A program made the position numbers and the translations under genes. Of a DNA stretch of 64,000 nt, positions 40,582 through 64,000 are shown in pieces (within the stretch, counting starts at the first letter, position 1; the number at the start of each line of letters is the position of its first letter). Where the stretch lies: the NCBI GenBank assembly GCA_963712115.1, contig CAVQGX010000003.1, forward strand, positions 65,443-129,442, in the 5' to 3' direction. The notes beneath the pieces are model-generated. The model saw nothing but the letters and a program-made list of their open reading frames with translations. It was not told the DNA's origin and did not search any database. This DNA is from an uncultured delta proteobacterium. GTDB taxonomy: Bacteria; Desulfobacterota; Syntrophobacteria; BM002.

Positions 40582-40692
40582 AGTTTCGATCACATACTTT
40601 AATGCACACTCACGCCCCGTTTTGACCTTCCCCTCCATCTTGTGCCAAGGTTTTCGAAGGTGAAGTGTGAATTAAGGGAATGCAAACTTTTG
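40582..40692. repeat. Complete bipartite site (inverted core, box, forward core)
   Basis: catactttaatgcacact...catcttgtgcc...agtgtgaattaaggga. Confidence 0.8.
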
Positions 40693-41314
40693 CTGTGATC
40701 GAGATTGGTTTACATTCCTCACAATTATATGTAATCGATCTTGTCCCTATAAGCTGCCCTTAAGGCGTTGCGAAGTATTTTCATCAGTCCATAGCTTAGT
40801 CTGTACTCCCCAACCTAAGATAATCTGCTTGCACCACTGCAAGGGATCAGTCCCGTCACCAAGATTTCACCCATATTGCAAAGCGTATAATATACAAATG
40901 CAATTTTGTACGAAATCTAGAGAAAACAGCAGAAAAACCAAGGTACCGGTTGAACCGTTAGATTGCAGATAACATGGTTATCATAAGGATATTTCTCCAT
41001 TTCTTATGCATCATGAAAAACAGAAATATTTTCATGTGTTACAGGGGTGTCAACAAAATTTCCCTTATTTCCTGAAGGTTTACTCTTTGTGCATAACCCC
41101 TATAGGGGGAATCAATTTTTCAGGGCTCACCGCATTTGAGTGATGCAAGAGTCAATTATAAAATAGTCTATAGGCTCAAAACTGTTCTCGCTTTCTCATT
41201 TTCAAAAAACCCTGCTTTTGCTGGCCAAGACCCGGGCCTCCACACCTAGAGACTGATTAATCTCGATTGGAGCCTAAAAAACCTGTACTACGTTATTAGG
41301 AAGGAAGTGGAACC

Positions 41315-41692
41315 ATGGCTAGAATCCTTCTGGTGGATGATGAGGAGTACATCCGCCGACTCTACACCGAGGAGCTTTCCGAGGAGGGTCACAAGGTCTT
41401 CACTGTGGCTTCGGGACATAATCTTCTGAAGAGGATTGACTCTCTCCAACCCGAAGCGGTTGTTCTGGACATCAGACTCGCGGACTACAACGGCTTAGAA
41501 CTTCTGCAGGAGATCCGCAATCTCTACCACGACCTGCCGGTCATCTTATGTACTGCTTACGATACATACAAATATGATCAGAAGTCCATTGCCGCTGACT
41601 ACTACGTAGTCAAATCATTTGACTTGTCGGAGCTAAAAATGGCAATAGAAAAGGCTACAGAGGGGCACACCTCTATGCGGTTGATCGTGTAG
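41315..41692 (+). CDS. Single-domain response regulator
   Basis: LLVDDE, LDI, CTA, VKS receiver motifs. Confidence 0.9.
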   Translation: MARILLVDDEEYIRRLYTEELSEEGHKVFTVASGHNLLKRIDSLQPEAVVLDIRLADYNGLELLQEIRNLYHDLPVILCTAYDTYKYDQKSIAADYYVVKSFDLSELKMAIEKATEGHTSMRLIV

Positions 41693-42258
41693 AGACTACT
41701 GTCTGAGCTGACAGCTGCCTTTCCAAAGGTGGTTTCCGACTCGATCAAGAGTTAGCGTTAAGATGTAAAGCTCTCCAACCATTTCCCTCGATCTTCTCAT
41801 AAATGACTTCAAGCTAAACTCAGTCTACTTCAGAGTACGTACCACATTCTGTGCTAGGGTCTTTAGAGCCAATAGTGTGAATTAAGGGATGTAATCTGAA
41901 GTTTCCCAGGGATTGGGCACGAGTTTAGACGATTCATCATTAAATGAACTTGCCTCAAGAGCCGAAAAGGCGACCTCCCATAATGTCCCACCAATATTCC
42001 GCATTCGGTATAAATGTTTTGTAAGCTAGTTAGGATTGATTCGTGGGGAATCTGTGTTATGCTAATAGCTAATTTTCCCTCGCTAAATTTATAGCCTGAT
42101 TTCAAGATTTGTGCGGACCCTGCCCCGATTATGTCCTCTTAGCCAGAATTTCGCAGCCCGCTTCCCACTGGTAGCGTACAGAGGAGGAAAAATTCTGTAA
42201 GCAATAACTGTAGCCACTTAACTCATACGAAATTTATAGAAAAAAATAGGATTGAGAC

Positions 42259-42588
42259 GTGTTTCCCATAAAACAAGAAAGACGACATCACCTAAGAGCC
42301 GAGTGCAATTTGACCGCCAGGATTCGGAGGGCTTCACGTTCTTTCGATGGATTAATTAGAAATGTAAGTGACAATGGAGTATTTCTCTGCTCTTCTCAGA
42401 AATTACTTCCTGGTGAGTGCGTTCGTATTGCTGTCGAACCACCGGGCTGTGTTCCTCTGGAAATTGACGCTGAAGTAGTCTGGTCTCGCATATTCAGGCA
42501 CGATGAGCCTGGTGGTTTATATGGAACGGGTTGTCGTTTTATGGATATGCGTCTGATGCAAACCGCAACCTCACCGACTCAGCTGTAA
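42259..42588 (+). CDS. PilZ-domain protein
   Basis: ERRHHLR, NVSDNG, VVW, GCRF. Confidence 0.82.
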   Translation: MFPIKQERRHHLRAECNLTARIRRASRSFDGLIRNVSDNGVFLCSSQKLLPGECVRIAVEPPGCVPLEIDAEVVWSRIFRHDEPGGLYGTGCRFMDMRLMQTATSPTQL

Positions 42589-42959
42589 CCACTTTGCACC
42601 CTTCTGACCCACCCCAAGATGGGGTAGTGTGCCTCCCAGTGCAGAAAGTGTAAATTAAGGGATGAGATCTCCACTTTGCCCTGGTTCCTCATAAGAGCCT
42701 TTTGTTTTCACTCGCGATAAAAAGTTTGATATTTAGAAAAAATGGTGGTTTTTCGTATTTACTTGAAACGGCTTGCCAGCCTATCCTGAAATTAACGAAA
42801 ATTCCTTCTCTAATTCATCCTCAAGAGACCATCTTTTAGTTCCCTGCTGCTCTGGCTGACCCGAAAACGATCCAAAGGAACCACAGGTTTGATTCTCCCA
42901 GGGAAAGTTATGGTTAGGCTTGGGTGTTTCACCCTTGCCAACAACATAGGGGGTGTATA

Positions 42960-43139
42960 ATGAAAAAACTTGCCTCATCAGGGGGTATTCAATCCCTATT
43001 AAGGAAATACAAAGCCATATTCAGTGTTTCTGAAGATCTTAAGCAATACCCAAAAAAGGATCTCAAGAGTGAGGAAAGAAAGTTTTTGAAATATGTTTTA
43101 GAACAACGCAGAATTGAAATTGAGGACGAACTTTTCTGA
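42960..43139 (+). CDS. Small hypothetical protein
   Basis: G-rich RBS, 59 aa ORF, followed by a terminator. Confidence 0.55.
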   Translation: MKKLASSGGIQSLLRKYKAIFSVSEDLKQYPKKDLKSEERKFLKYVLEQRRIEIEDELF

Positions 43140-43170
43140 ACTCAGCTCTAGATTCTTTTTCCAAAGAAAG

Positions 43171-43198
43171 AGCGGAGCTTCGGCTCCGCTTTTTTTTG
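43171..43198 (+). terminator. Shared GCGGAGC-TTCG-GCTCCGC terminator (first of ~8 copies)
   Basis: UUCG tetraloop plus U-tract; copies or variants near 48314, 49401, 51174, 53218, 54631, 55766, 58295, 58888. Confidence 0.8.
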
Positions 43199-43603: not shown

Positions 43604-43924
43604 ATGCAAAAAGAAAGTCGCAAACACCCCAGAGCAAAGGTAGTATGGCCAGTAATCATGGAAAACAGCCGAAATATCATTAGTGGAGAAACGCAAGATA
43701 TAAGTGCTGGCGGAGCATATATGCTTTGTCGTAACCCGCTAAAGCCCGTTAAGGTTTCCATGTATTTCAGTGTCTCCCTTTTAAGCCCTCGTATAAGAGC
43801 CATGGCAGAAGTTGTCAGGTCAGATATTCTTGGCTCAGCTAATGGGGTTGAGTACTGCGGTATAGGAGTTAGGTTCGTAGCAATTTCTGATGAAGGCCGG
43901 GAGCTCATTTCACTTGAGTTGTAG
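43604..43924 (+). CDS. PilZ-domain protein
   Basis: SRKHPR, DISAGG, GIGVRF. Confidence 0.85.
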   Translation: MQKESRKHPRAKVVWPVIMENSRNIISGETQDISAGGAYMLCRNPLKPVKVSMYFSVSLLSPRIRAMAEVVRSDILGSANGVEYCGIGVRFVAISDEGRELISLEL

Positions 43925-44273
43925 AACACAAAATTGTCACCCCCTACAACAACGGTGGTATCCCCGACTCATCAGCCACGCCCTTAACGTCAATGGCTAT
44001 CAGGGCAATACTACCTGCTTCTACTCTCCCTGCCTTGACCACTCTCAACATTTTGTGCCAGAGCAAATCCTAGGGAAGTGTAAATTAAGGAATGTAATAC
44101 AAAGTCCGCATCGACCTCTACATGCTGCGCATCCAACTGTTGCAGTAATCTCTTTCTATGTGGTAAGTTGCCCCGTGGGTAGGGCATCCGTGGGCTGGAC
44201 ATGCCCTACCTGCTCTCTCTACTTGTTTGCCCCCATTGGCCTCAACTTGCTCGGTCAGTGGGGGCTTTTTATG

Positions 44274-44380: not shown

Positions 44381-44460
44381 CAGCCTTCCTTGCTGTACAC
44401 CGTTCCGGTAAGTGGGCATAGACTTTGCACTCCCAACCAGGAAAAAACTGGAGGTTCACT

Positions 44461-44800: not shown

Positions 44801-45111
44801 CAACCGCATTGACTTGACCACCCACAATATTCTGTGCCAGAGTAAATTTTAGCGGAGTGTGGATTAAGGGATGTAATGTTTTGTAGTGATCAAGATAAGT
44901 CTATATACCTTATCGATTTGTGCGTGTTAATCTGATAACATGTTAGATCGGCTCTGGAATGGCTCTATAAAATATAGACTTGACACTCTCAGACCTCCTG
45001 TGCCTGTTTGCCAAGCCTTATTTCATTTCTAATAAATCACAGGATATGGCTAAAAAAGAAAGCTTGCTGTTGTCAGGTGGGGTAATAGTTTTTTGGAGGT
45101 ATGGTTACTAA

Positions 45112-46071
45112 ATGGCGCATGTCCGGTATCATTTAGCTCAAGGCTGCGTAATTTTCTTGATACTCTTAATATGTATGCTATACGCTATGGACCACGCTAC
45201 TCCCAATACCTCTCCAACCCTTTCCTCAGGAGGAACTGAGGATGAAACTACCACTGATCCCTACATACTTAGAACCATCGAGGTCATCAATCAGGATGAC
45301 CGATGGCACGTTGTGCTCACCGGTTCTGAATCCATGACCTATGAGGCAAGTAAAACGGTTAATCCTCTAGGACTAAAAGTAGATTTGCCAAATACAGTTG
45401 TCAGGCCCGAGGTCCTGCCAAGACATAAAGAAAACGAAATCGTTGGCAGAATCAGTGCGTCAGTGCTTATCAGTGGTCCTCAGCCTCTAACGCAAATCGG
45501 GATAAATTTAAACAAGGATGTCTCATACGTAATTAGCAGAGCGCAGGGGAAGATTTGGGTGAGTTTCGACACATCATCTCTTCAGACAGGAGCTAAGCCT
45601 ATCCAGATAGAACCCGTTACAAAATCGAGGGCTGAAGACTTCGGTGGTAGACTTGAAGCCGCTACGGCTGCCCCCACTTTAGAAGAAGGGATACTTTCTT
45701 CTGTACAACCCACTAAAAGGGAGCCAGTGATGCCTGCGCATGAAATAACGGCCATCAAATCAATTAAATCAGATGAAGAATTGCGTGTCTACATCCTCGC
45801 TGATGGAAGTCTTTCTCAATATAATACTTTCTTCTTGAATAGCCCACCGAGATTGGTGATGGATTTCATGGCAGTTAGGTCTACTAAGGTGAAAGGTGTC
45901 CAGAGCCTGAAAGGATTGCTAGTCAAAAAGATACGGGTGGGCCTACATAGTGAGAAGTTGCGAGTGGTATTTGACTTGGTATCCGAGAAGGAGCCTTCTT
46001 ATCAGATCATTTTGGGAGATGATCGACTAGTTATTTCTTTCAAACTAAGCGGAGGATTTTCACCACACTAA
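45112..46071 (+). CDS. Protein with two AMIN domains
   Basis: N-terminal anchor; NPLGLKVDL and SPPRLVMDF...KIRVG...LRVVFDL. Confidence 0.75.
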   Translation: MAHVRYHLAQGCVIFLILLICMLYAMDHATPNTSPTLSSGGTEDETTTDPYILRTIEVINQDDRWHVVLTGSESMTYEASKTVNPLGLKVDLPNTVVRPEVLPRHKENEIVGRISASVLISGPQPLTQIGINLNKDVSYVISRAQGKIWVSFDTSSLQTGAKPIQIEPVTKSRAEDFGGRLEAATAAPTLEEGILSSVQPTKREPVMPAHEITAIKSIKSDEELRVYILADGSLSQYNTFFLNSPPRLVMDFMAVRSTKVKGVQSLKGLLVKKIRVGLHSEKLRVVFDLVSEKEPSYQIILGDDRLVISFKLSGGFSPH

Positions 46072-46198: not shown

Positions 46199-46309
46199 AC
46201 TGAATATCTCATACTTTAATCCCCACTTTTGCCCTTTCTGACCCTTCACCAGATATAGCGGTGTTTTTCTCAGAACTAAAAGTGTGAATTAAGGGATGTA
46301 ATGTGCACT
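46199..46309. repeat. Complete bipartite site
   Basis: catactttaatccccacttttgccctttctga...tcagaactaaaagtgtgaattaagggatgtaatgtgcact. Confidence 0.85.
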
Positions 46310-46568: not shown

Positions 46569-48041
46569 ATGTTAAAGGTCAAACCTGTCGGGATCGCAGC
46601 TATACTCGTTGCCACCATGTGGTTTTTGAGTGCCAGTGCAGGCAGCCAGGCAAAGACGGGAGAAGTATTCGAAATGGCGAATCCAGCAGATGAAGTAAAC
46701 CGTTTCGACAGCGAAATAAGCAACGCACAAAAAAACCAAGTCAATGTCTTGGCACCGATCTCTTTCGCCAAGGCTGAGAAGTACCTCAATGATGCCAAGG
46801 AAGCATTGGTGGGTGGAAATGAAATTTCAGAAATTCTTGAAGAGATCACTTCTGGGCGTCTACAACTCCAACGTGCTGAGGAGATGGCGCAAGTGGCGAG
46901 GACAACATTACCCAACGTTATAAAAGCTCGTGAACTGGCCCGTGCTGCAGGCGCTATCAGTTTAGGTGAGGATTATGTTAAGGCAGAGAAACAGTTTCTC
47001 AAACTCACCAAAGCGATAGAGAAAGACGACCTTAGGTATGCCCAAAATAACAGGGATAAGGTTGCCGCTGGCTTTGATCAACTTGAGCTGCGAGCCATTA
47101 AAGAGCAGAAACTAGGCGAAGCTCGCAAGTTAATCAATCAGGCAGAGGAGGAAGGCGCAAAGAAACTGGCACCGCAGACTTTGGAAATTGCTGAGCAGAG
47201 TTTGAAAGATGCAGATGTATTTATTTCAGAGCATCGCTATGAAAGAGAAAAGATACAGCAGAAATCCAGTGAGGCATTTTTCCAAGCCGAGCGTCTTCTT
47301 GAAGTGACAAGGCAAAGTAAAAAGATGAAAGAAATGGAGCCTGAGGAGATCAGCCTTTGGATGGAGGGAATCTTGAGCAAGACAGCGAGCACGCTTTCTG
47401 CTCCTGACATGCGGAACGAATCGTTTGATACGCAACGTGAAAATATTCTCGGCTCAGTCAGCGCACTCCAGGAGGATAAGCAATTCATTGCAAGCCAGGA
47501 CAAAGGCCACGTAGAGGAAATTGAGTCCTTGAAACAGCAAATTGCCCAGTTGGAGGGAAAGACTAAGGAGGAACAGGCAGCTTTAGAACGCTTGGAGAAA
47601 GAAAAGAGGTTCAATGAACTTTTCAATGAGGTCACAGGGTACTTCAGTACAGGCGAAGCGGAAGTATACAAACAAGGCAATAGATTGATAATTCGGTTAA
47701 GAGCAATCCAATTTCCGGTGGGAAAGGCCGTTATCATGCCTGATAATTACGGACTATTAAGCAAGGTTCAGCGAGCGATTAGAACCTTCGGTGAGCCAGA
47801 TGTTGTAATAGAGGGGCACACGGACACGACAGAATCAGAAGAGGTCAGTGAACACCTGTCGCAGCAAAGGGCTGAATCGGTTCGTAAGTACTTAGTGGCG
47901 AATCAAACCCTACCAGAGGAAAAGATTGTTGCTGTCGGTTACGGTTCTAAACGACCTTTGGCATCCAATGAGACTGAAGAGGGACGTGCTATCAATAGAA
48001 GAATCGATGTAGTTATTTCCCCTATGCCACAGGCCGGCTAA
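46569..48041 (+). CDS. OmpA/MotB-family protein with a coiled-coil N-terminus
   Basis: IEGHTD, LSQQRAESV, GYG..RP, GRAINRRID. Confidence 0.88.
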   Translation: MLKVKPVGIAAILVATMWFLSASAGSQAKTGEVFEMANPADEVNRFDSEISNAQKNQVNVLAPISFAKAEKYLNDAKEALVGGNEISEILEEITSGRLQLQRAEEMAQVARTTLPNVIKARELARAAGAISLGEDYVKAEKQFLKLTKAIEKDDLRYAQNNRDKVAAGFDQLELRAIKEQKLGEARKLINQAEEEGAKKLAPQTLEIAEQSLKDADVFISEHRYEREKIQQKSSEAFFQAERLLEVTRQSKKMKEMEPEEISLWMEGILSKTASTLSAPDMRNESFDTQRENILGSVSALQEDKQFIASQDKGHVEEIESLKQQIAQLEGKTKEEQAALERLEKEKRFNELFNEVTGYFSTGEAEVYKQGNRLIIRLRAIQFPVGKAVIMPDNYGLLSKVQRAIRTFGEPDVVIEGHTDTTESEEVSEHLSQQRAESVRKYLVANQTLPEEKIVAVGYGSKRPLASNETEEGRAINRRIDVVISPMPQAG

Positions 48042-48769
48042 TCGACCTGTCAGAACAAGGTAAAGGGACACTTTTATTGCGCTGAGAATAGTAAAGCAAG
48101 GCTCTTCAGCCCGGGAGAGCCTTGCTTTTCCCTTTTAATTACAGACTATCTCCTTGATTTTATATTTCTTAAGCAATTAATGGTTAGCATAATGAGATAA
48201 TGGATAAACCGTTACTGTCTGAATAGCGCTGCCATGCCTGGAGTTCAGATTACATACTCCACACTTTCTCTTTTGAGAACCGGCCACAATATCTTGGTTT
48301 AAACTAAAAAAATGCGGAGTCATTGGCTTCGCTTTTTTACTTCTCAACATCTTGTGATGAGGTTTCTAGGGGGGAAGTGTGAATTAAGGGATGTAATCGC
48401 CACTCTGCTCTCGTCGTTTTTACCACCCGACTAAATAGCCACAGGAGTGCGCTTTTGCTTGACAACAAGCGCTTCCCTCGCTTAATTTGAAGTCAGTTCT
48501 ATTTCCTTTTCCAACTCATCTTCGAGAGACCATTCGCTCAGTCATACACTCATCTGAACGGAATTATCACCTCACTCATTTTAGGCACTGTCTTCCACCT
48601 TTAGAGGCAAGTCATGAAGTGGATTTTCCAGAAAATGCCTACATGTGGCCCCCAAAGGCAGTAGATGTCCTTTGGGGGTCTTCTATGTGTTAACTCTCTG
48701 CAAGTAGATAGGTATTGCATATGAAGCCGCATGAAAATCACAATGACTTGTGATGAGGGAGGAAAAACC

Positions 48770-49463: not shown

Positions 49464-49492
49464 AGTGTGAATTAAGGGATGTAATTCACACT
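49464..49492. repeat. Perfectly palindromic core site
   Basis: AGTGTGAATTA-AGGGATG-TAATTCACACT. Confidence 0.9.
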
Positions 49493-50151: not shown

Positions 50152-50166
50152 TCACCTCAGACTTTT

Positions 50167-50517
50167 ATGAGCATACAAAGACGACAGCATTCCAGAATTC
50201 TCGTCAGTTGGCCTGTGCTAGTGAATATCTTACAAGGTTCATTAGAGGGAAAGGTAAAAGATATCAGTGTTGGAGGCGTTGGCATCTTCTGCACAGAGGA
50301 GCCAGGTGCTGAGGAGAACATTTCTATCGTTCTAAATCCCTCCGAGCAGCGATCCATTGCTTTAATTGGCGAAAAAGTCTGGTCGGATGCGTATGAAACT
50401 GGTTGTGGAACACTATTTAGTATGGGTATCAGATTCATTTACATATCACCAGCAGATCATCAATACATTGCTGAATTAGTAAAAAATGAGCAGCATGACT
50501 TGCCCTTTAGAACCTAA
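50167..50517 (+). CDS. PilZ-domain protein
   Basis: RRQHSR, DISVGG, MGIRF. Confidence 0.85.
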   Translation: MSIQRRQHSRILVSWPVLVNILQGSLEGKVKDISVGGVGIFCTEEPGAEENISIVLNPSEQRSIALIGEKVWSDAYETGCGTLFSMGIRFIYISPADHQYIAELVKNEQHDLPFRT

Positions 50518-50818
50518 GCTCACCAAACGAATAAAAGTCGAGCCTGTCAAATGCCCCAGGTGTAAATTCACTATAATGGTTAATCTAAGAGAGAAAGTGT
50601 GTCCTGTTTGTGGGAGTGCGTTGCCAATCACTGAGAAGCGTTAAATGACTATCAATATCTTGTGCCAGATTGAAATCCAGAAAAGTGTGAATTAAGGGAT
50701 GTAATATAAAGTCCGCCCCGCACCCCCTCCATGCTGCCCACTTGTTAAAAAAGTCGGGCATAGACCTTGCAAACTCCACTGTAGCGAAAAAAATGGGGAG
50801 GCCACTAGGAGAAAGTGT

Positions 50819-51145
50819 ATGGCAAAGACAGACCGAAATCATTCTAGGGTTGCAGTCTCCTGGCCTGCTGCAATACTTAGTGAGCAGGGGGCAATTGCCG
50901 CTGAGGTAAAGAATGTTAGCTTGTCCGGAGTACTTATCTGGATTAATGAGGTGCCTGGCTCGAACGGAAATTATCATTTGGCTATCCTGATACCGGAGCA
51001 CAATTACACTATATTGACAAAAGTGGAGCCAATTAGACTTGAAATCCATGAGAATGAACCCAAACTCATTTATAGTTTGGGGGTTCGATTTGTAGATATT
51101 TCAGTAGAAGACCTCCGATTTCTTCTAGAGAGGGTCTTGCGTTAG
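50819..51145 (+). CDS. PilZ-domain protein
   Basis: DRNHSR, NVSLSG, LGVRF; GG-N10-GC at 50757-50770. Confidence 0.82.
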   Translation: MAKTDRNHSRVAVSWPAAILSEQGAIAAEVKNVSLSGVLIWINEVPGSNGNYHLAILIPEHNYTILTKVEPIRLEIHENEPKLIYSLGVRFVDISVEDLRFLLERVLR

Positions 51146-51310: not shown

Positions 51311-51852
51311 GAACCGCTTTAACTTGACCATCCACCACATTTGGTGCCAGATTTTCTGGGGGTAAAATGTGAATTAAGGGATGTAATCCACATTCCGCTC
51401 CCACCCTCTATGCATTCCACCTCAAATTCCCCCTAGTATTAATTGTGTTACAAGGGTAGCAAAGAAAAAATCATGCATTCTTCGTATTCACTTAATATAT
51501 TGCACTATTTACACTATGGTGATCCCAATGAGGGCTCATCGAGATCGAATAGGAGACGATTTATGGATTCGTTTACAGTTGAACTGACCCTTTTTTGCGC
51601 TGTTGCTATTGCATTAGTTGCCACACACAGAAAATGAGTCCACTCTGGACTCACTCTACCCCTTTCGGATATAATTACGGACATCGTTTAAGTCTGTACG
51701 CCTAGAAGCTAGATCCCAGATTACTCTGTGGGTTTAGAAACTCTCTCAAGATCGCATTCTCTTATCCCTTCGCAATAGGCAGCAGTATAGAGAATCAGCT
51801 GATTCTCAACTGGTGAGGATTTTTTGACCAGTTAATCAAACCAACTGAGTAG

Positions 51853-53178: not shown

Positions 53179-53380
53179 ATTACTTTCAGAATACTCTATC
53201 CATCTCCCAAAGATACTGCGGAGCTTCGACTCCGTTTTTTTATTCTCAACATCTTGTGCCTGAGCAAATCTCAGAGCAGTGTGAATTAAGGGATGATATT
53301 TTTAGTTTTTCAGATGCACTTTTCTTGTAGGAATTCGTGAGGGCATTCTAGGGTGGGATGAGAGTGCAAAGGTAAAGACA

Positions 53381-53872
53381 ATGGACTATTCAATGTCTCC
53401 AATTTCAGAGGATGATCGTAGAGCAATAATCGATATATTTAACTATTACGTAGAAAATTCTTTCGCAGCATATCCTGAGACGAAATTCCCTTATGAAGCA
53501 TTCGATATGTTTCTGCAAATGTCTCAGGGCTATCCCACAGCAAAAGTAAAAGATAAAAATGGCAGGGTAATTGGTTTTGGACTGCTGCGTTCACATAATC
53601 CCATGCCCACCTTTGCTGAGACGGCAGAAATAACCTACTTCATTCACCCGGATCACACGGGAAAAGGTATTGGAACAAAGCTTTTAAGCTTGCTCGAAGA
53701 AGAAGGAATAAAAAAAGGCATAACGAATATTTTAGCCAATATATCTTCCCTCAATCCCAGAAGCATAGATTTTCATAAAAAGAACGGCTTTATCGAGTGC
53801 GGGCGTTTCAAAAACGTGGGCAGAAAAAAGGGACAGGTATTCGATACAGTTTGGATGCAAAAAACACTCTAG
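53381..53872 (+). CDS. GNAT N-acetyltransferase (Pat/YncA-like)
   Basis: IFNYYV, GKGIG, N..SI.FHKKNGF, G.K.G..FD.VWMQ. Confidence 0.88.
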   Translation: MDYSMSPISEDDRRAIIDIFNYYVENSFAAYPETKFPYEAFDMFLQMSQGYPTAKVKDKNGRVIGFGLLRSHNPMPTFAETAEITYFIHPDHTGKGIGTKLLSLLEEEGIKKGITNILANISSLNPRSIDFHKKNGFIECGRFKNVGRKKGQVFDTVWMQKTL

Positions 53873-54052
53873 CTTATCGCTCTACACCTTCACGTAGTGT
53901 TTTGCTCTCTAGTATTGGAATTGGCAATTAAGGGATGTAATCTAATTTTTTTACTTCAATGGAAAAGCTTTATGACGATTGTGTGATAACTTTGTGATAT
54001 TGAAAACATGAAATCAGAGCAAAAAAAGTCTTGTGATTTCTCACAGGACATT

Positions 54053-54268: not shown

Positions 54269-54808
54269 TGCGTTTCCTCCTTACTATCATCTGTGCATTC
54301 TATTATCGTGTCCTAGAAAGAACTCAATAGCAAAAAAAGGTTCATTATACTCAATATAAAATGACACACTTCCTTCATTATTCGCTGGCCCCATCAACAA
54401 ATATGGGTTTGAATATATCATCTTTGGGTTGACCCATCAAGCACTTCACTACGATGAATCTCTCTGGGTCATCATGAGTTATTTCCTTTCCTTCCTTTGG
54501 GTTGTAGACCACAACATTGTGCCTATCGCTCAATTCCCACAGTTGCTGGGAGATTCGACCCAGCATTGACTATTGGTAAATAATCCCAGAAACAAAACAG
54601 GGAAGAACTAAAGATTCTTCAAACACCCCAGCGGAGCTTCGGCTCCGTTTTTTTCAGTGCTAGTTAGCCGAGGCTCAGATTACATACTTTAATCTTAACT
54701 AGCCTTCCTTTTGACCAGCCAGTCTATCTTGTGGTAGGTTCCTGTAGTCCACTTAAAATGGCTTAGCTCCACTCAATCTGAACTGTGTCCTGTGGGGAGG
54801 GAATTTTC

Positions 54809-55591
54809 ATGTGCGAACTACTTGGTCTATGTTTTAACAAAGAGGTTACCGTTCAATTGGCCTTCTCTGGGCTAAAAGCTGGCGCAACGGATAACCCTGA
54901 TGGGTGGGGAGTGGCCTGGTATAATGAATACGGGACCCAAGTTATTAAAGAAGCAAGGCCAGTAGATCGGAGTCGTCTTGCCAGGAGCTTTCTGGAAGAC
55001 TTGGGTGCCCGATCAAGGATCTTTGTCTCACATATCCGCCTTGCTACAGCAGGTGAGGCAGGTTACGTCAACACGCACCCCTTTTATAGAAGGTTTGATG
55101 ATAAGACCTGGGTTTTTGCCCACAATGGCACGATAGATCCTGGTCAACTGAGTTTCTCTCCTAGAGAGTTCATCCCAATTGGCACAACTGATTCTGAACT
55201 CATCTTCTGTAGTCTTTTGTCATGGCTCAAGCATCATAAGTTGAGCTTGGCCGATAGAAATGACTTTATTCTCTTGCATGAGAAATTAGGAGAAATAAAC
55301 CGCTTAGGCGAGCTAAACCTGCTTTTTAGTAATGGCACCCACTTGTTCGCTTATCACGACAGGTCCGGTTACGTGGGGCTTCATTTCTTGCTCCGTCGCG
55401 CTCCCTACAAGGTTGTCAGACTTCGCGGACACTATCTGACTGCCGACTTAGCAGAGATCATAGATCCGGATGAACGAGGATATCTCGTGGCCAGCGAGCC
55501 CCTGAGCGATGAGAATTGGATAAGTTTTAAGCCAGGCCAGTTGTTGGTTTTTTTTGAAGGTAATCCCATTTTCATGAGTGAAAATGAATGA
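54809..55591 (+). CDS. Class II glutamine amidotransferase (YafJ-like)
   Basis: MCELLG, NPDGWG, HIR.AT, NTHPF, FAHNG, GTTDSE. Confidence 0.9.
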   Translation: MCELLGLCFNKEVTVQLAFSGLKAGATDNPDGWGVAWYNEYGTQVIKEARPVDRSRLARSFLEDLGARSRIFVSHIRLATAGEAGYVNTHPFYRRFDDKTWVFAHNGTIDPGQLSFSPREFIPIGTTDSELIFCSLLSWLKHHKLSLADRNDFILLHEKLGEINRLGELNLLFSNGTHLFAYHDRSGYVGLHFLLRRAPYKVVRLRGHYLTADLAEIIDPDERGYLVASEPLSDENWISFKPGQLLVFFEGNPIFMSENE

Positions 55592-56248
55592 ATCCGTGAG
55601 GATAACCTTCACCGTCGGATCCGCCACACCGCTTTAGCCAAAATGGAGATATCATACTTTAATCCACACTTTTGCCATTCTGAGTCAGCCACAATATCTG
55701 GGGTGAAACGAACCTAAAGCGTTAACCTTGCCCCAATGGGGCTATTCATTTTTCAAAGATCACTGCGGAGTTTCGGCTCCGCTTTTTTTGTTGTGGTATC
55801 CACTTGAGTCATGCTAAGTTACTTCTTGGACAGGGAGCCTTCTCTGTCCGGTGCCCCGACCCCCAGCACCTAAGTGCCCCGGTTGCTGGGGGTTTTTTGT
55901 TGTGATGCAGCCTCGCTTGGCACCTTTCCATATCTTGTGCCAGAGTGAAAACCAGCAGAGTGTGAATTAAGGGATGTAATATAAAGTTTGCTCTCACCTG
56001 TCCGTACTAACCACCTTGGTTTCTCCCTGGTATTAGAGGGTACTAAAACCAAAATCATGCATCCTGCCGATTTACAGAGTTAGTCAGATTGTTCTAAGAT
56101 GCTTACGTTTTTACGTATATACGGCACGAAAATAGACAGCATTACCTGTAATTAGCTTTTCCATAGCTATCGGCACGTCACTTGCCTATTCGTTCTCTCA
56201 GCATAGTCAATTCCAGAAGGAGAATTTCTGCATTAAAAGAGAAAGACT

Positions 56249-56536
56249 GTGGCTCACGAAATCGACAACCGGCAACACCCTAGAATGCCAATCACATTAC
56301 TTGCCAGGATGGTCACTCCAACAAGCGTTACGGAAGGCGTAACGGAGAATATTAGCCTGCATGGCGCCTTTATCCGTTGCCAAAAACCGCTTGAGCCCGG
56401 AGAGAGGATCATTGTCATTGCGAAACTTCCTTCCAACCCATCGTTTAACTCCCATGCTGAGATTGTCTGGTCACGTGTGCCTCGCCCTAATGACGAGGTA
56501 ATTAGCCGTGGCATGGGAGTTAAGTTCATAGACTGA
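56249..56536 (+). CDS. PilZ-domain protein
   Basis: NRQHPR, NISLHG, GMGVKF; sigma54 motif CGGCACGTCACTTGC at 56171. Confidence 0.87.
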   Translation: MAHEIDNRQHPRMPITLLARMVTPTSVTEGVTENISLHGAFIRCQKPLEPGERIIVIAKLPSNPSFNSHAEIVWSRVPRPNDEVISRGMGVKFID

Positions 56537-56969
56537 CCCCGGATTAGCTTGATCTTGGAGGCCCAGTCTACAGAAGCAGGGTTGTAGCTTCCACCTCCAT
56601 TTTTATGCATTGCCATACCCTAGGGCGTTACCCCTGTTGGCCTTGGATCGCTCGACTCATCAGTGGGGTTTTTTTCGATAACCCCGCTTTGACCACTCAC
56701 AGCAATTTGTGCCAGTCTGTAACCTAGGCGATTGTGAATTAAGGGATGTAATACAACTTTTGCTTTGGTCGAAGCGAGGTTGAATTACTCATCAATAACA
56801 CAATGTGGTAGTTTTTTCCCAACCTTATAACCTTGGTTTCCCATCTTGTTCCTTCTAATTTCTGATGTATATCGACTAATCCTTTGAAATATTTCCAAAT
56901 AAATTTAGTTACTTAATTTGGCATGATTATTGTTTGCTGGAGCTTTAGCATGAATGTCGATAGATTCTG

Positions 56970-57479: not shown

Positions 57480-58142
57480 GTGAACTCAGTATCCTGGACG
57501 ATATATGTAATCGGACCGTGTAGGGTGAATAATGAGCTTCTGGCGTCCTTTTTGGAGGCCGAGATAGGTGCGAATTGTGTAGTCAAAGAGACTATCGACG
57601 ATGTGGTTGAATTGGATGATCAAGAGAGTGTTAAACCCAAGCTAGTACTCCTCGACTGCTTTGCCAAAGACCACGAAAGACTCTTCCTTGAGGTTGAAGC
57701 TTGCTATTGTAATTTGGGCACCTCGGACTTAATGGCGGTCTTCAACTTGATCCGAGGGCTGAGAATTGAGGAAGAGCTCGTGATAAGAGGAGTAAGGGGC
57801 ATCTTTTATGCCAATGATCACCCGGGCAACCTTGATAAAGGAATTCGTGCACTCTTGAAAGGGGAGATTTGGATCTCCCGTGAGATTCTGTCTAAATTCA
57901 TTCCCGAAATTGAGAACGCAAAAGTATTATCTGGGAATGAAACATCTGTGCTTTCGGGAAGAGAGATCGAGATAGTGAATTTGGTTGCACGGGGAGCAAT
58001 GAACACGGAAATAGGTGAAAAACTTTATATTAGCCGTCATACAGTCAAGACCCATCTTTACAACATATACAAAAAGATCAAGGTCACCAATCGCCTGGAG
58101 GCAGCCCTTTGGGCCAAGGAAAACCTCCACACTCAGACCTAA
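57480..58142 (+). CDS. LuxR-family regulator with a degenerate receiver (CsgD/VpsT-like)
   Basis: GVRGIFY, GEIWISR, LSGRE...N.EI..KLYIS.HTVKTHLYNI. Confidence 0.85.
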   Translation: MNSVSWTIYVIGPCRVNNELLASFLEAEIGANCVVKETIDDVVELDDQESVKPKLVLLDCFAKDHERLFLEVEACYCNLGTSDLMAVFNLIRGLRIEEELVIRGVRGIFYANDHPGNLDKGIRALLKGEIWISREILSKFIPEIENAKVLSGNETSVLSGREIEIVNLVARGAMNTEIGEKLYISRHTVKTHLYNIYKKIKVTNRLEAALWAKENLHTQT

Positions 58143-58491
58143 GCTCCGTTGACCTTCTGGACTGGCTGAAGATTACATACTTTAATCCACACTTTTGCCA
58201 TTCTGAAACATCCACCACATCTAGTGTTGAATAAGTGTGGGGTAATTGGACACGCCTGCCCACGGTGAGGCTATTCACTTCCTAAAGAACACTTGCGGAG
58301 CCTTGGCTCCGCTTTTTCTTTTGCCAACTCTCCATTCGAATTAGAGTCTCTTAGCAATTTTCAACCTAGACCAATCAATTCTAGCCCGGATGTTTCACCC
58401 CTCCGTGCTGCCTCAGCTGAGTAAATTTCTTGATGCACCTGTAACCTTTTTCGCCCTCCATTCGATTAATAAGTATGAAAGGAGAATAAAA

Positions 58492-59108: not shown

Positions 59109-59477
59109 ATGAACCAAGAACAAAAGGACACATATCCAACAGGTGGACTCGGATGGCCTGTTACCATTGTAAGTCCTGAGGGCGACCTAGAGGCTGCGAT
59201 TGAAAGTGTGAGTTCAAAGGGTGCTCTCATTTCTTGCAATGACATACCACCTTTAACTAAAACATTACAGTTGATAATCAGGCCCCCAAATTACAAGACA
59301 GTTCTTACTAGCGGAAAAATAATTTGGTCTACCATCCTTAAACCTGACGAAGGTGATTCACGTCTTGGTATAGCCATTCAATTCATAACCATGACCGCAA
59401 GTGACCGCCGGTTCCTCTCCTCTGCCGTTGCAAAGCTTGGCTCTAAGAACACCAAGCTGGCAACCGACAAAGAATAG
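59109..59477 (+). CDS. Degenerate PilZ-domain protein
   Basis: WPVTI, SVSSKGA, IIW, LGIAIQF; RxxxR lost. Confidence 0.7.
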   Translation: MNQEQKDTYPTGGLGWPVTIVSPEGDLEAAIESVSSKGALISCNDIPPLTKTLQLIIRPPNYKTVLTSGKIIWSTILKPDEGDSRLGIAIQFITMTASDRRFLSSAVAKLGSKNTKLATDKE

Positions 59478-59930: not shown

Positions 59931-60800
59931 ATGAAAGTCAGAAAGCGACAGGAGAATTTAGGATTCAGGCACAAATCTAAGGTTGAACTCTTCAAAGAAG
60001 GGATGGATTTCTCGATTAAAGGGATGACTGAGAAAATCGGCCAAAATAGTGCCTTTATCAAGACCAAAGACTGGCAATCTTTCCAAGTTGGAGACTCAAC
60101 TATTCTAAGGTTTATTCTCCCTACTGACTACGCTGGGTTTCAAGGTGAAGCCATTGTTCAGGACATAGATCAGGAGAATGAAGGGGTGATGGTAGAGTTT
60201 GTACGAAGCTTCAAACAGCTTGAGCCGGTCAGCACACCCGATGTTTCGGGGAAAGCCAGATACAAAAACCTGGCATTTTACCTTTCCAGTCTTGTAGATG
60301 CACCTTTAGGTGAATTGACCTCTGTACATCCAAACGGCTTTTTGGTTGAAAAATCTAAGAGGTTCTTTGACGATAATGTGATGTTTCAGTTTAGTACCGA
60401 TGTGGTGGAAGATCAGGATGTTCTGGAACAATTAAGCCAAGGAGTGAATCGTAGAGAGGTCTTGGGGGCTAGGGTGGTAGAAATCAAAAAAAGGAAAAAT
60501 ATCACCAACCCCGATATGATCACCATAGGTCGTTCTCCCGAAAATGATATTGTTTTGTATAACAGGTTGGTATCTAAGAGTCATGCTTACCTGGATGTAG
60601 GTTCTTCAGATGAAGCTGTTTATCTGGTTGATACTGGGTCAACGAATGGTACATTTGTCAACAATGTCCCATTAGCGCCTCGTGGAAACTATGAGCTGGC
60701 TGATGGCGATGAGATTTCATTTGGGCCTGAAACAAAGGTCGTTTACTTTTCACCGAAGGCTTTCCAGGGCTTGCTTTCAGGATTGAAATCTTTCGATTGA
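59931..60800 (+). CDS. PilZ-like plus FHA domain protein
   Basis: FHA motifs IGR, SKSHA, STNGTF; colinear with the C-terminal part of 13563-15014. Confidence 0.8.
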   Translation: MKVRKRQENLGFRHKSKVELFKEGMDFSIKGMTEKIGQNSAFIKTKDWQSFQVGDSTILRFILPTDYAGFQGEAIVQDIDQENEGVMVEFVRSFKQLEPVSTPDVSGKARYKNLAFYLSSLVDAPLGELTSVHPNGFLVEKSKRFFDDNVMFQFSTDVVEDQDVLEQLSQGVNRREVLGARVVEIKKRKNITNPDMITIGRSPENDIVLYNRLVSKSHAYLDVGSSDEAVYLVDTGSTNGTFVNNVPLAPRGNYELADGDEISFGPETKVVYFSPKAFQGLLSGLKSFD

Positions 60801-60980: not shown

Positions 60981-61307
60981 ATGGACGATGAAAAGCGGAT
61001 ATATCCAAGAACTGAAATTAAATGGCCTGTTTCTGCCATAACGGCTAAGGGCATGATTCTTGGCGAAACCAAAAATATCAGTCTCAATGGTGCATTTATC
61101 TATTGTGAAAAGACGCTATGCCCTGACGAAGTAATGTTGTTGACCGTCAAAGGGCCTTCTGGCCACATGCAAGTCGTTGCTCAAGTGCTCTGGTCAAATT
61201 GCTGCGCTTGCGATGAGAAGAAAAGCCCAAGCGGAATTGGCGTAAAGTTTATGTGGTCGCTACCCAAAACAGAGTCAGAGTGCATGATGTGGAGTAAAGC
61301 AAGCTGA
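60981..61307 (+). CDS. PilZ-domain protein
   Basis: KRIYPR, NISLNG, GIGVKF; sigma54 motif at 60867-60880. Confidence 0.87.
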   Translation: MDDEKRIYPRTEIKWPVSAITAKGMILGETKNISLNGAFIYCEKTLCPDEVMLLTVKGPSGHMQVVAQVLWSNCCACDEKKSPSGIGVKFMWSLPKTESECMMWSKAS

Positions 61308-61368: not shown

Positions 61369-61689
61369 GTGCCTATGCAGAGTCGGCAGAACAGAAGAAA
61401 ATACCCTCGTGTGCAAGCGTCCTTCCTTGTAAATTGCCAACAGGCTGATCTCACCAGAGTGGGGGACAAAGCCCTTAATCGGAGTGCAGGGGGAATAGCT
61501 ATCAAGACCAATTGCCCGGTCTGCGTAGGAGAGAAACTAACAGTGAAGTTCGTGGAGCCGAAAACTCTCCATTCTCATAGTATGAAAGGACTGGTGGTCT
61601 GGCGCCAATTTCATGGAGATGGCTCTGAGCAAGCAGAGACTTTGTTTACCGCAGGAATCAAGTTTCTGAATCTTAATGACTCCTTCTAA
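61369..61689 (+). CDS. PilZ-domain protein
   Basis: RRKYPR, NRSAGG, VVW, AGIKF. Confidence 0.82.
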   Translation: MPMQSRQNRRKYPRVQASFLVNCQQADLTRVGDKALNRSAGGIAIKTNCPVCVGEKLTVKFVEPKTLHSHSMKGLVVWRQFHGDGSEQAETLFTAGIKFLNLNDSF

Positions 61690-61703: not shown

Positions 61704-61814
61704 ACTGTGAATGACATACTTTAATGCACACTTTTGCCCTTTCTGGTCCGAACCCACATATAGTAGTATCGTTCTTAGAACTAAAACTGTGAATTAAGGG
61801 ATGTAATACAAAGT
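61704..61814. repeat. Complete bipartite site at the duplication junction
   Basis: catactttaatgcacacttttgccctttctg...ttagaactaaaactgtgaattaagggatgtaat. Confidence 0.85.
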
Positions 61815-62075: not shown

Positions 62076-62363
62076 GTGGCTCACGAAATCGACAACCGGC
62101 AACACCCTAGAATGCCAATCACATTACTTGCCAGGATGGTCACTACAACAAGCGTTATGGAAGGCGTAACGGAGAATATTAGCCTGCATGGCGCCTTTAT
62201 CCGTTGCCAAAAACCGCTTGAGCCCGGAGAGAGGATCATTGTCATTGCGAAACTTCCTTCCAACCCATCGTTTAACTCCCATGCTGAGATTGTCTGGTCA
62301 CGTGTGCCTCGCCCTAATGACGAGGTAATTAGCCGTGGCATGGGAGTTAAGTTCATAGACTGA
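62076..62363 (+). CDS. PilZ-domain protein (duplicate)
   Basis: Two amino acid differences from 56249-56536. Confidence 0.87.
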   Translation: MAHEIDNRQHPRMPITLLARMVTTTSVMEGVTENISLHGAFIRCQKPLEPGERIIVIAKLPSNPSFNSHAEIVWSRVPRPNDEVISRGMGVKFID

Positions 62364-62796
62364 CCCCGGATTAGCTTGATCTTGGAGGCCCAGTCTACAG
62401 AAGCAGGGTTGTAGCTTCCACCTCCATTTTTATGCATTGCCATACCGTAGGGCGTTACCCCTGTTGGCCTTGGATCGCTCGACTCATCAGTGGGGTTTTT
62501 TTCGATAACCCCGCTTTGACCACTCACAGCAATTTGTGCCAGTCTGTAACCTAGGCGATTGTGAATTAAGGGATGTAATACAACTTTTGCTTTGATCGAA
62601 GCGAGGTTGAATTACTCATCAATAACACAATGTGGTAGTTTTTTCCCAACCTTATAACCTTGGTTTCCCATCTTGTTCTTTCTAATTTCTGATGTATATC
62701 GACTAATCCTTTGAAATATTTCCAAATAAATTTAGTTACTTAATTTGGCATGATTATTGTTTGCTGGAGCTTTAGCATGAATGCCGATAGATTCTG

Positions 62797-63036
62797 TTGC
62801 ACACAACAAGGCAGAGTATTTTGGTGAGAAACCGAAAGGCTCCTATGGTAGAAGAGCGAAGTCCCTGTCTTAAATGCGAACGTCTGGAAAAGAACAAGTT
62901 GGAGTGCGCAGCTTCGTGTGAAGAACTAGAGAAATTCAAAGAAGGACTGCATCATTGCCTATTAACCCAGGAAGACTCAACTGACTATAGAATCCCGGGT
63001 TTGCAGCGGACACGGTGTTACACCATTGATGATTGA
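62797..63036 (+). CDS. Small Cys-rich hypothetical protein (duplicate)
   Basis: Same protein as 56970-57209. Confidence 0.5.
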   Translation: MHTTRQSILVRNRKAPMVEERSPCLKCERLEKNKLECAASCEELEKFKEGLHHCLLTQEDSTDYRIPGLQRTRCYTIDD

Positions 63037-63072
63037 ACGAAACTGCTGGCATAACAATCAAAATACACCGAA

Positions 63073-63285
63073 ATGGCAGTGACTATGAGAGTATGGTTGC
63101 AGCATAACTTAAATCCGTTGCATTTGTGGTGTCGACTCGGCGGTCGTTTTAAATGGTGTCTCAGATTATACGAGGATTACTTATGGCAGCCTCTCCTGAG
63201 AGGTTGGCTCAACGGCAAAGTCAAGTGGGAGGAACCTGACCTTCCAGGTGAGGAGACAGAGTTCTTGCCGCAGTCTCCCATGTGA
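63073..63285 (+). CDS. Small hypothetical protein (duplicate)
   Basis: Four amino acid differences from 57246-57458. Confidence 0.55.
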   Translation: MAVTMRVWLQHNLNPLHLWCRLGGRFKWCLRLYEDYLWQPLLRGWLNGKVKWEEPDLPGEETEFLPQSPM

Positions 63286-63306
63286 ATCTGTTAGGATAAG
63301 AGACAA

Positions 63307-63969
63307 GTGAACTCAGTATCCTGGACGATATATGTAATCGGACCGTGTAGGGTGAATAATGAGCTTCTGGCGTCCTTTTTGGAGGCCGAGATAGGTGCGA
63401 ATTGTGTAGTCAAGGAGACTATCGACGATGTGGTTGAATTGGATGATCAAGAGAGTGTTAAACCCAAGCTAGTACTCCTCGACTGCTTTGCCAAAGACCA
63501 CGAAAGACTCTTCCTTGAGGTTGAAGCTTGCTATTGTAATTTAGGCACCTCGGACTTAATGGCGGTCTTCAACTTGATCCGAGGGCTGAGAATTGAGGAA
63601 GAGCTCGTGATAAGAGGAGTAAGGGGCATCTTTTATGCCAATGATCACCCGGGCAACCTTGATAAAGGAATTCGTGCACTCTTGAAAGGGGAGATTTGGA
63701 TCTCCCGTGAGATTCTGTCTAAATTCATTCCCGAAATTGAGAACGCAAAAGTATTATCTGGGAATGAAACATCTGTGCTTTCGGGAAGAGAGATCGAGAT
63801 AGTGAATTTGGTTGCACGGGGAGCAATGAACACGGAAATAGGTGAAAAACTTTATATTAGCCGTCACACAGTCAAGACCCATCTTTACAACATATACAAA
63901 AAGATCAAGGTCACCAATCGCCTGGAGGCAGCCCTTTGGGCCAAGGAAAACCTCCACACTCAGACCTAA
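63307..63969 (+). CDS. CsgD/VpsT-like LuxR regulator (duplicate)
   Basis: Protein identical to 57480-58142; only synonymous SNPs. Confidence 0.85.
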   Translation: MNSVSWTIYVIGPCRVNNELLASFLEAEIGANCVVKETIDDVVELDDQESVKPKLVLLDCFAKDHERLFLEVEACYCNLGTSDLMAVFNLIRGLRIEEELVIRGVRGIFYANDHPGNLDKGIRALLKGEIWISREILSKFIPEIENAKVLSGNETSVLSGREIEIVNLVARGAMNTEIGEKLYISRHTVKTHLYNIYKKIKVTNRLEAALWAKENLHTQT

Positions 63970-64000
63970 GCTCCGTTGACCTTCTGGACTGGCTGAAGAT

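Follow-up and report, generated by a model that had tools for sequence, protein, structure and literature searches.

We describe an array of small gene modules, separated by two types of short repeated site, that fills the end of a 64,000-nucleotide stretch of DNA (the window) from an uncultured member of the Desulfobacterota. The two site types, here named T1 and T2, appear to be core sites at which a tyrosine recombinase exchanges modules, the enzyme most likely being a 278-aa Xer-like protein encoded on the same contig; we put the probability of this reading at roughly 60%. The window covers positions 65443 to 129442 of contig C3 in the assembly of its genome (G000; 4.9 Mb in 70 contigs, completeness 94%, contamination 6%), and the contig ends where the window ends, inside the array.

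A scan of the window with the 22-mer AGTGTGAATTAAGGGATGTAAT, allowing up to 3 mismatches, returned 16 matches, against none in 100 shuffled versions (mean 0, maximum 0). Fifteen of these lie on the + strand between 41874 and 62579. Together with an extra, degenerate + strand T1 at 40664 (5 mismatches), they bear out a first-pass annotation of this DNA, which had reported at least 16 copies in the same orientation and none in the first 40 kb; in our window scan, no copy precedes 40589. The remaining match, on the − strand at 58172, belongs to T2 and is not a stray T1. Each T1 consists of a conserved arm (AGTGTGAATTA), a 7-bp spacer (AGGGATG), and a weak arm (TAATnnnnAnT). The site had been described as an 11-7-11 palindrome, which is exactly true of the copy at 49464. 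Across 98 genomic copies the left arm is indeed strong, but the right arm is weak and the site only loosely palindromic: in a logo of these copies, positions 1 to 22 are near-invariant, positions 23 to 26 are variable, and the right arm keeps only TAAT, A27, and T29. The same logo shows a moderately conserved 30-nt stretch to the left of T1. All 22 of the 22 bases are identical across species. With two inverted arms set around an asymmetric 7-bp spacer that does not vary, T1 has the architecture expected of a core site for a tyrosine recombinase. A likeness of the 49464 palindrome loop to a CsrA-type binding hairpin was dropped, since most copies are unable to form the stem, and scans of the window with Rfam (at gathering scores) and for tRNAs gave no matches.

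The sites extend well beyond the window. A 19-mer of T1 has 79 matches in the G000 assembly at up to 2 mismatches, and the full site is present in 98 to 107 copies, depending on the threshold, so that the single array at one locus envisaged at first gives way to many clusters and about 100 sites. The copies form co-oriented clusters on many contigs. Because several of these contigs are short (~20 kb) or carry their sites at contig ends, the repeats probably break the assembly.

A family built on a single 22-mer describes T1 correctly but is incomplete, as a second site type, T2, is inverted relative to T1. T2 has the same arms around a different spacer, AAGTATG, and its inversion is invariable; in the orientation of the array it reads ATTACATACTTTAATCCACACT. 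The window holds 6 copies, and the genome about 60 (63 in the site-step count described below, 59 with full flanks). T2 lies shortly downstream of genes, and the distance from T2 to the next T1 is quantised, at 74 to 75 nt (n = 14), 130 to 132 nt (n = 7), or larger values (n = 7). The junctions of 130 to 132 nt enclose a terminator hairpin. Counting steps to the next co-oriented site within 8 kb, we found 33 from T1 to T2, 28 from T2 to T1, 41 from T1 to T1, and 12 from T2 to T2; alternation of the two types is common but not strict. Among the T2 sites listed, we found no inverted T2-x-T1 centre (T2, intervening DNA, T1), all centres having one orientation. An invertible-promoter switch (inverton) needs both orientations of its segment, whereas the centres listed show only one. 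After some T2 sites there is no T1 but a conserved sequence of ~90 nt, which includes GGTAATTGGACACGCCTGCCCACGGTGAGGCTATTCACTT, with a terminator behind it; such segments lie in the window (58194-58330) and on contigs C13, C33, C34, C36, and C46.

Homology between array segments breaks at these sites. We compared 94 T1 sites with 400-nt flanks and scored a flank as shared when the match reached the site and was 85% or more identical across 250 nt or more. Pairs of T1 have the left flank in common in 11 cases, the right flank in 8, and both in only 3, and the partner switches at T1 in 13 of the 16 distinct flank-sharing pairs. In the 13 switching pairs, homology on the left side crosses T1 and fades between about position 19 and a point a few bases past its end, while homology on the right side stops at positions -5 to 5 (one pair could not be placed). 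Variants within T1 segregate with one flank or the other, those at position 2 with the left and those at position 20 with the right, and so locate the exchange between positions 3 and 19. T2 behaves in the same manner: 4 pairs share the left flank, 3 the right, and none both, all 7 switch at the site, and variants place the switch point around the spacer. The expectation that homology breakpoints coincide with the cores is thus borne out for both types. Exchange would take place within the 7-bp spacer, acting as the overlap.

Two observations within G000 concern the same sites. The block 55961-57900, which encodes a PilZ protein and, in a second module, a small open reading frame (ORF) and a LuxR-type regulator, recurs at 61788-63727 and at G000:C39:8582-10301 with 98 to 99% identity, and the left neighbour at the first T1 is different in each of the three copies. 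A 1.3-kb element of the IS110 family of insertion sequences (DEDD_Tnp_IS110 plus Transposase_20) lies at G000:C42:17052-18343, with further copies on C36, C41, and C48. At four T1 sites, each in different surroundings, this element interrupts the T1 arm at one and the same point (AGTG / GTGTGAATTA).

Modules also occur singly, and in different places, in other species. Copies of window modules, 75 to 97% identical, were found in all 17 other genomes of the genus, and homology between genomes starts or ends at T1 or T2. For instance, homology of the OmpA module with G005 and G006 starts at 46281-46288, which is a T1, and a 97% duplicate of the AMIN module on C34 ends at 46229, the end of a T2. 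The class-II glutamine amidotransferase module (54785-55591) is present in nine genomes (its own and 8 relatives), with flanks common only to G013 and G008. Order and content of the modules are therefore variable, as the first-pass annotation had predicted, and differ module by module between species. T1 itself was found in every other genome of the genus (17 of 17) and in the one genome available of a sister genus (1 of 1), and in none of 22 further genomes (3 from other genera of the family and 19 from other families of the class). Public records with exact T1 matches are titled as metagenome-assembled genomes of uncultured Desulfobacterota, Syntrophobacterales, or Desulfobacteraceae, apart from a few short contigs that are binned with unrelated taxa. 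Two or three public matches without the usual flanks are likely due to chance.

The first-pass annotation had supposed that a tyrosine recombinase outside the window, possibly XerC/D-like, serves the sites. A gene of this kind is indeed linked to the sites, and a homologue lies on the window's own contig; that its product is the enzyme is our own reading. Among 12 phage-integrase-family matches in G000, one encodes a protein of 278 aa (G000:C3:1094-1930); it lies ~104 kb upstream of the array, where a further T1 cluster, of opposite orientation, ends. The sister genus and 6 of the 17 other genomes of the genus have homologues, and none was found in 3 other genera of the family. The two genomes richest in T1, G000 (79 matches) and G005 (65), both have the gene. 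In G006 (L108), the gene occupies an ordinary position in an array, antisense to it, with T2 ~84 nt past the stop codon and T1 ~185 nt before the start of the matched region. In G005 the T1 side is found on one contig and the T2 side on another, and the same is true of the metagenome contigs L115 and L116; in these cases T1 lies ~135 to 185 nt upstream of the start or T2 ~66 to 84 nt downstream of the stop. Within the recombinase unit, the 35 nt beside T1 are homologous to ordinary T1 left flanks, so that the 75-nt and 131-nt junctions look like miniature recombinase units.

The protein comprises a core-binding and a catalytic domain without an arm-binding domain (Pfam Phage_integrase, 72 bits, plus a SAM-like N-terminal domain), the composition of a simple, Xer-like tyrosine recombinase. 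The best NCBIfam match is XerA_Arch at 119 bits, below the cut-off of 220, and the best match among solved structures is 4a8e, an archaeal XerC-like protein; the integron-integrase model scores 39.5 bits against a cut-off of 265. In an alignment of eight sequences, R142, H224, R227, H251, and Y260 (the catalytic R, H-x-x-R, H, and Y columns) are invariant. From gene position and family together, we infer that this protein binds and cuts the T1 and T2 sites. A run of A residues near codon 20 varies among the homologues (G000:C3:1094-1930 and L106-L112): in G000 it is A7 and the frame is open, and in six other species the frame is shifted, by A8 in G005, G018, G011, G004, and G010 and by GGG plus A7 in G006. 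This pattern suggests expression by slippage or phase variation, and the interruption may hold expression low.

The wider family has at least 537 relatives in metagenomes, and its other clades have other flanks. Inverted 20-mers shared by the upstream and downstream flanks were found at 7 of 42 family loci, compared with 1 of 42 in each of two controls, a suggestive excess. In a clade that is 51 to 54% identical, the flank motif is present in only 1 to 6 copies per genome and thus forms no arrays. We also considered P4-like integrases encoded beside arrays (G000:C39:10742-11977, and a pseudogene on C11 with one TAA) and rejected them as the enzyme, because within the genus just 3 of 17 genomes have relatives and because relatives are also present in a genus that lacks the motif.

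Several observations weigh against recombination by this protein at T1 and T2. Its family is present in only 6 of the 17 other genomes of the genus, and no homologue was found at E ≤ 1e-15 in the closed genomes G002 and G013, which have 16 and 4 motif matches. Beside the gene copy of the window's own genome the sites have decayed, and all the copies of G000, G018, and G012, which are 79 to 84% identical to one another, are flanked by sites that are decayed or displaced. Alternation is incomplete, with 41 T1-to-T1 and 12 T2-to-T2 steps set against 61 alternating ones. The flank-sharing pairs are not all independent, as three of the left-sharing pairs have the IS110-family element in common and three of the right-sharing pairs represent one module in three places. 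Furthermore, cores identical over 22 bp also promote exchange by homologous or illegitimate recombination, for which reason breakpoints alone are no proof of site-specific recombination, and one indel boundary between G013 and G008 lies ~40 nt beyond T1, outside the site. We observed neither an excision or integration event nor a circle, deletion joint, or inversion directly. Public runs that include the region consist solely of short assembled contigs: 20 of the 24 runs listed contain part of the stretch, about one-fifth to one-fourth of its sampled words. Over 40400-60300 the contigs from these runs have many joints and loose ends at or beside T1 and T2, and we did not use them as evidence because their short sides are only 19 to 37 letters and may come from repeats or other organisms.

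The absence of the small recombinase from closed G002 and G013, both of which have T1 and T2, raises the possibility that host XerC/XerD or another housekeeping recombinase acts on the sites, the small recombinase gene being cargo or serving its own unit only. The window's genome encodes XerC-like and XerD-like proteins (G000:C30 and C62), and the weak arm, read as TAATnTAAAnT, resembles the right-hand arm of a ColE1 sequence. The first-pass annotation had already noted a likeness to the plasmid site cer. The 11-mer AATTAAGGGAT of T1 does occur once in ColE1, inside GGTGCGTACAATTAAGGGATTATGGTAAAT, a stretch that we take to be the cer core. The letters are there, but their register is shifted by 3 relative to the arms and the likeness may be a coincidence; a literature search for the cer letters returned unrelated matches only. 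More generally, ColE1 cer and other Xer sites resemble T1 and T2 in having two arms and a centre of 6 to 8 bp, and the protein associated with T1 and T2 is Xer-like. According to the excerpt of PMC13141974, Acinetobacter dif modules operate with the host enzymes. Against such a role here, no likeness of the conserved arm and 7-bp spacer to a host dif could be established; our sole dif candidate, G000:C20:67873, was rejected, being conserved in 0 of 17 genomes of the genus. Both arms are variants of a single half-site, which suits one protein better than a pair, and the conserved placement of the small recombinase gene between T2 and T1 would be left unexplained. We consider this alternative unlikely, if still worth keeping in view.

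If the 278-aa recombinase does act on T1 and T2, the array would be composed of two kinds of module. Gene modules would run from T1 to T2 with the weak arms facing inward and would contain a leader of ~270 nt, a single gene or a few genes in the same orientation, and in many cases a terminator. Junction modules would run from T2 to the next T1 with the conserved arms inward, measuring 75 or 131 nt from start to start, or ~1.1 kb when carrying the recombinase gene. Recombination between two T1 or two T2 in direct orientation would excise, insert, or swap modules, and the differing overlaps would prevent T1 from reacting with T2. The lack of inverted junctions among the T2 sites listed is what would be expected if T1 and T2 do not cross-react. 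Over time, such reactions could build co-oriented arrays and move modules between loci and genomes, and the system may be active today.

The fixed lengths of the junctions also invite another explanation, in which the T2-x-T1 unit would be a miniature element with inverted repeats that descends from a parent carrying the recombinase and has transposed into intergenic DNA, while flanks switch by homologous recombination between copies. T2 and T1 do form inverted termini of 22 to 26 nt around a short core, a long form with the recombinase gene stands beside numerous short forms whose lengths are fixed at 75 and 131 nt, and the frameshift at the A tract of the recombinase gene recalls insertion sequences. 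A tyrosine recombinase, however, could not excise such a unit by joining its ends, which are inverted and have different overlaps. In addition, 41 steps from T1 reach another T1 with no T2 between, the copies lie in clusters and in the orientation of the genes instead of being dispersed, and whole gene modules change context, not merely the short unit. No target duplication or empty site was found at the single, non-syntenic locus tried: for an isolated copy at G000:C37:95000-105000, relatives had fragments only and no synteny. On balance, a miniature element seems quite improbable.

The sites and annotated genes of the array, all on the + strand, are as follows, with gene assignments from Pfam.

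40589..40610, +, T2 site, reading ATCACATACTTTAATGCACACT; start of the array
40664..40685, +, T1, degenerate (5 mismatches), 75 nt past T2
41315..41692, +, gene of a response-regulator receiver module
41874..41895, +, T1, exact (22-mer scan)
42259..42588, +, gene of a PilZ module
42647..42668, +, T1, 3 mismatches (22-mer scan)
43604..43924, +, gene of a PilZ module
44077..44098, +, T1, 2 mismatches (22-mer scan)
44856..44877, +, T1, 1 mismatch (22-mer scan)
45112..46071, +, gene of the AMIN-domain protein module
46206..46227, +, T2, 75 nt ahead of the next T1; end of the AMIN module's 97% duplicate on C34
46281..46302, +, T1, exact; start of the OmpA-module homology with G005 and G006
46569..48041, +, gene of the OmpA-family protein module
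48376..48397, +, T1, exact; terminator hairpin upstream at 48314-48332
49464..49492, +, T1, perfect 11-7-11 palindrome
50167..50517, +, gene of a PilZ module
50684..50705, +, T1, exact (22-mer scan)
50819..51145, +, gene of a PilZ module
51366..51387, +, T1, 1 mismatch (22-mer scan)
51853..53178, +, gene of the PKD-repeat protein module
53278..53299, +, T1, 2 mismatches (22-mer scan)
53381..53872, +, gene of the GNAT acetyltransferase module
53920..53941, +, T1, 3 mismatches (22-mer scan)
54679..54700, +, T2-like site
54785..55591, +, gene of the class-II glutamine amidotransferase module
55649..55670, +, T2 site
55959..55980, +, T1, exact (22-mer scan)
56249..56536, +, gene of a PilZ module
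56731..56752, +, T1, 1 mismatch (22-mer scan)
57480..58142, +, gene of the module for a VpsT-like regulator (receiver plus LuxR/GerE)
58172..58193, +, T2 site, previously noted as a − strand copy
59109..59477, +, gene of a PilZ module
59931..60800, +, gene of the FHA-domain protein module
60981..61307, +, gene of a PilZ module
61369..61689, +, gene of a PilZ module
61711..61732, +, T2, 75 nt ahead of the next T1
61786..61807, +, T1, 1 mismatch; start of the 99% duplicate of 55961-57900
62558..62579, +, T1, 1 mismatch; the contig ends at 64000 inside the array

Just before the array, a short ORF at 39023-39370 (within 38886-39370) has a partial match to CsgG, covering profile positions 51 to 101 of 210, and looks like a gene fragment.

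Our Pfam scan of the array was confined to + strand ORFs, the longer − strand ORFs overlapping + strand ORFs with family matches. The 16 Pfam-matched ORFs from 41315 to 61689 (16 of 16 on the + strand) encode eight PilZ proteins and one each of receiver, AMIN, OmpA, PKD, GNAT, amidotransferase, VpsT-like LuxR, and FHA proteins. A ninth PilZ ORF of the array, at 62076, lies within the duplicated block. The earlier description of the modules as unrelated to each other does not survive these nine PilZ ORFs, nor the recurrence of 55961-57900 at 61788-63727 with 99% identity. Across G000, we counted 103 modules with 231 same-strand ORFs of at least 70 aa, of which PilZ-like proteins form the largest cluster (28 of 231). 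The genome has 136 PilZ-domain matches in its 4.9 Mb, some in dense clusters away from T1, such as C37:13.8-44.2 kb. PilZ is thus enriched in modules but not confined to them, and the repertoire of receptors for cyclic di-GMP (c-di-GMP) is unusually large.

Modules had also been described as self-contained, each with a promoter region and a terminator. Terminator-like hairpins are enriched in the array (41, compared with 18.5 ± 4.0 expected), while sigma-70-like promoters are not (27, compared with 31.9 expected), which corrects this description. Sigma-54 and sigma-28 promoter readings of the flanks were rejected on inspection by eye, as spacing and key bases misfit. Genome-wide, the leaders to the right of T1 fall into a few sequence families, one containing TCCATGCTGCC, one ending in a TTGACA box, and one hairpinning with the weak arm.

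Genes downstream of T1 are always co-oriented with it, and the first ORF starts a median of 268 nt after the site. With a cargo rich in PilZ (28 of 231 ORFs) and including receiver, LuxR, FHA, OmpA, AMIN, and PKD proteins, T1 might be viewed as an operator or promoter element of a c-di-GMP and surface regulon, selected upstream of these genes. Identity at 22 of 22 bases across species would be unusually strict for an operator, the distance from T1 to the ORF ranges from 7 to 2630 nt, and T2 lies downstream of genes in inverted orientation. Most of the 136 PilZ matches fall outside the counted T1 modules. Such an element would furthermore leave the recombinase linkage and the breakpoints at both sites unexplained, and we regard it as very unlikely.

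The same genome also contains a classical integron, at G000:C27:1-3303, with an IntI gene (317 aa) at 2350-3303 and at least three cassettes with ordinary attC sites. Its cassettes run to the start of the contig, which breaks inside an attC. The protein of G000:C27:2350-3303 is a typical integron integrase and appears to contain the insertion specific to IntI. The attC site is classically composed of two inverted simple sites with a variable centre between them. Since T2-x-T1 is likewise composed of two inverted simple sites around a variable centre, it could in principle be an unusual class of attC used by IntI. Classical attC ends are rare in the G000 assembly, with 5 matches, one of them inside the T1 array on C54. 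In addition, although the amidotransferase module is preceded by T1 and a leader of ~100 nt in G005, G002, and G009, its gene follows a classical attC end in G013 (L197), G008 (L203), and G010 (L204). This gene therefore circulates in both kinds of array. In G013 it is followed by a decayed T2-x-T1 unit, and with attC before the gene and this unit after it, the two cassette systems share cargo and loci.

Other observations separate the two systems. The RYYYAAC and GTTRRRY boxes are absent from T1 and T2, whereas the IntI-adjacent cassettes (G000:C27:1-2300) have ends of the type ...ATAAC ... GTTAT/GTTAG, a family distinct from T1 and T2; the cores are non-attC, as the first-pass annotation had stated. 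In G000, IntI adjoins classical attC and no T1. No IntI was found at E ≤ 1e-30 in the T1-bearing genomes G002, G011, G013, G018, and G005 (four of them closed), in a search made without a positive control. The inner arms of T2 and T1 are complementary, but the variable positions of their outer arms match in only 1.58 and 1.51 of 4 cases, compared with 1.45 for random pairs. This lack of outer-arm covariation gives no support to a folded-strand site of the attC kind, and an IntI-served attC class is, to our minds, extremely unlikely.

If T1 and T2 do serve a dedicated recombinase, cassette exchange by simple Xer-like recombinases would be a more general route to accessory genomes, here in a system with ~100 sites per genome that is conserved through a genus known only from metagenomes. 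T1 arrays would explain the poor assembly of these genomes, many of whose contigs end in arrays, and T1 would provide a short, exact marker for finding such arrays elsewhere. The bias of the cargo toward PilZ and signalling, with 136 PilZ matches in one genome, would link the platform to diversification of c-di-GMP signalling. Such a system would also yield a compact pair of recombinase and site for trial as a tool.

For capturing and shuffling genes, integrons are the textbook example, and to our knowledge arrays of modules with recombinase sites as their boundaries are otherwise well documented only for the dif modules of Acinetobacter, which are restricted to small plasmids. A literature search on the motif letters returned unrelated matches only, and one on comparable systems returned the Acinetobacter system and a classification of tyrosine recombinases (excerpt of PMC8138268); neither gave a description of the T1/T2 site or arrangement. 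Among smaller repeats, repetitive extragenic palindromes (REP) and their paired form (REPIN), with their REP-associated tyrosine transposases (RAYT), are similar in being short, imperfect palindromes, single or in inverted doublets of ~100 nt, behind genes or terminators. They differ in that the gene linked to T1 and T2 encodes a tyrosine recombinase of the phage-integrase fold and no Y1 HUH enzyme; four Y1_Tnp matches exist in G000, and none was seen flanked by T1 or T2. The clustering of T1 and T2 also differs from the dispersed distribution of REP. Miniature inverted-repeat transposable elements (MITE) and insertion sequences combine inverted termini with a target-site duplication and with empty sites in relatives; the T2-x-T1 unit has inverted termini, and no target duplication or empty site was found at the one non-syntenic locus tried.

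The first-pass annotation had called the array integron-like, and its co-oriented cassettes support that comparison, although the presence of two inverted site types brings the design closer to Acinetobacter dif modules. As in integrons, long co-oriented arrays are built from small units, mostly of one gene and each ending in a recombination site, the same genes appear in different arrays and species, and the recombinase is encoded antisense to the array. Elements of the IS110 family are likewise known to target attC. The differences are substantial: T1 and T2 lack the RYYYAAC/GTTRRRY boxes and any sign of a folded strand, the T1-linked recombinase scores far below the integron-integrase cut-off (39.5 compared with 265 bits), no attI or common promoter was seen, arrays are many per genome, and modules have leaders of ~270 nt in an array enriched in terminator-like hairpins.

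The closer parallel is with Acinetobacter. In the excerpt of PMC13141974, dif modules are bounded by pdif core sites, neighbouring sites are inverted, and two classes of module alternate. Crossovers fall within the sites and need matching spacers, and modules are shuffled between replicons (excerpts of PMC13141974 and PMC10132070); insertion sequences that target pdif sites are likewise on record (excerpt of PMC10132070). T1 and T2 arrays share the short two-arm core sites, the opposite orientation of the two site types, the switching within sites, and insertion at the sites, here by an IS110-family element in four T1. The logic of C and D modules, as given in the excerpt of PMC13141974, is mirrored by the gene and junction modules bounded by T1 and T2. 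The two systems differ in that the Acinetobacter site is 28 bp long, an 11-bp XerC arm and an 11-bp XerD arm enclosing a 6-bp spacer that comes in many versions, while T1 and T2 have a 7-bp spacer of which just two fixed versions occur. The Acinetobacter modules reside on Rep_3 plasmids and carry resistance genes, whereas T1 and T2 occur on large, chromosomal-looking contigs with ~100 sites per genome and carry signalling and surface genes. Here, moreover, gene modules are all co-oriented, alternation is partial, and a small Xer-like recombinase gene lies inside a junction module.

Tentatively, and at a little less than even odds, we propose that these arrays represent a third prokaryotic cassette platform beside integrons and Acinetobacter dif modules: chromosomal, organized by T1 and T2, with its own Xer-like recombinase in a junction module and gated by a slippery A tract. 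It would reshuffle ~100 promoter-carrying modules of signalling and surface genes per genome, many of them PilZ receptors for c-di-GMP, throughout a genus of uncultured sediment Desulfobacterota. Altogether, what is new here is a probable cassette-exchange system that is like dif modules and loosely like integrons while failing the defining sequence features of both.

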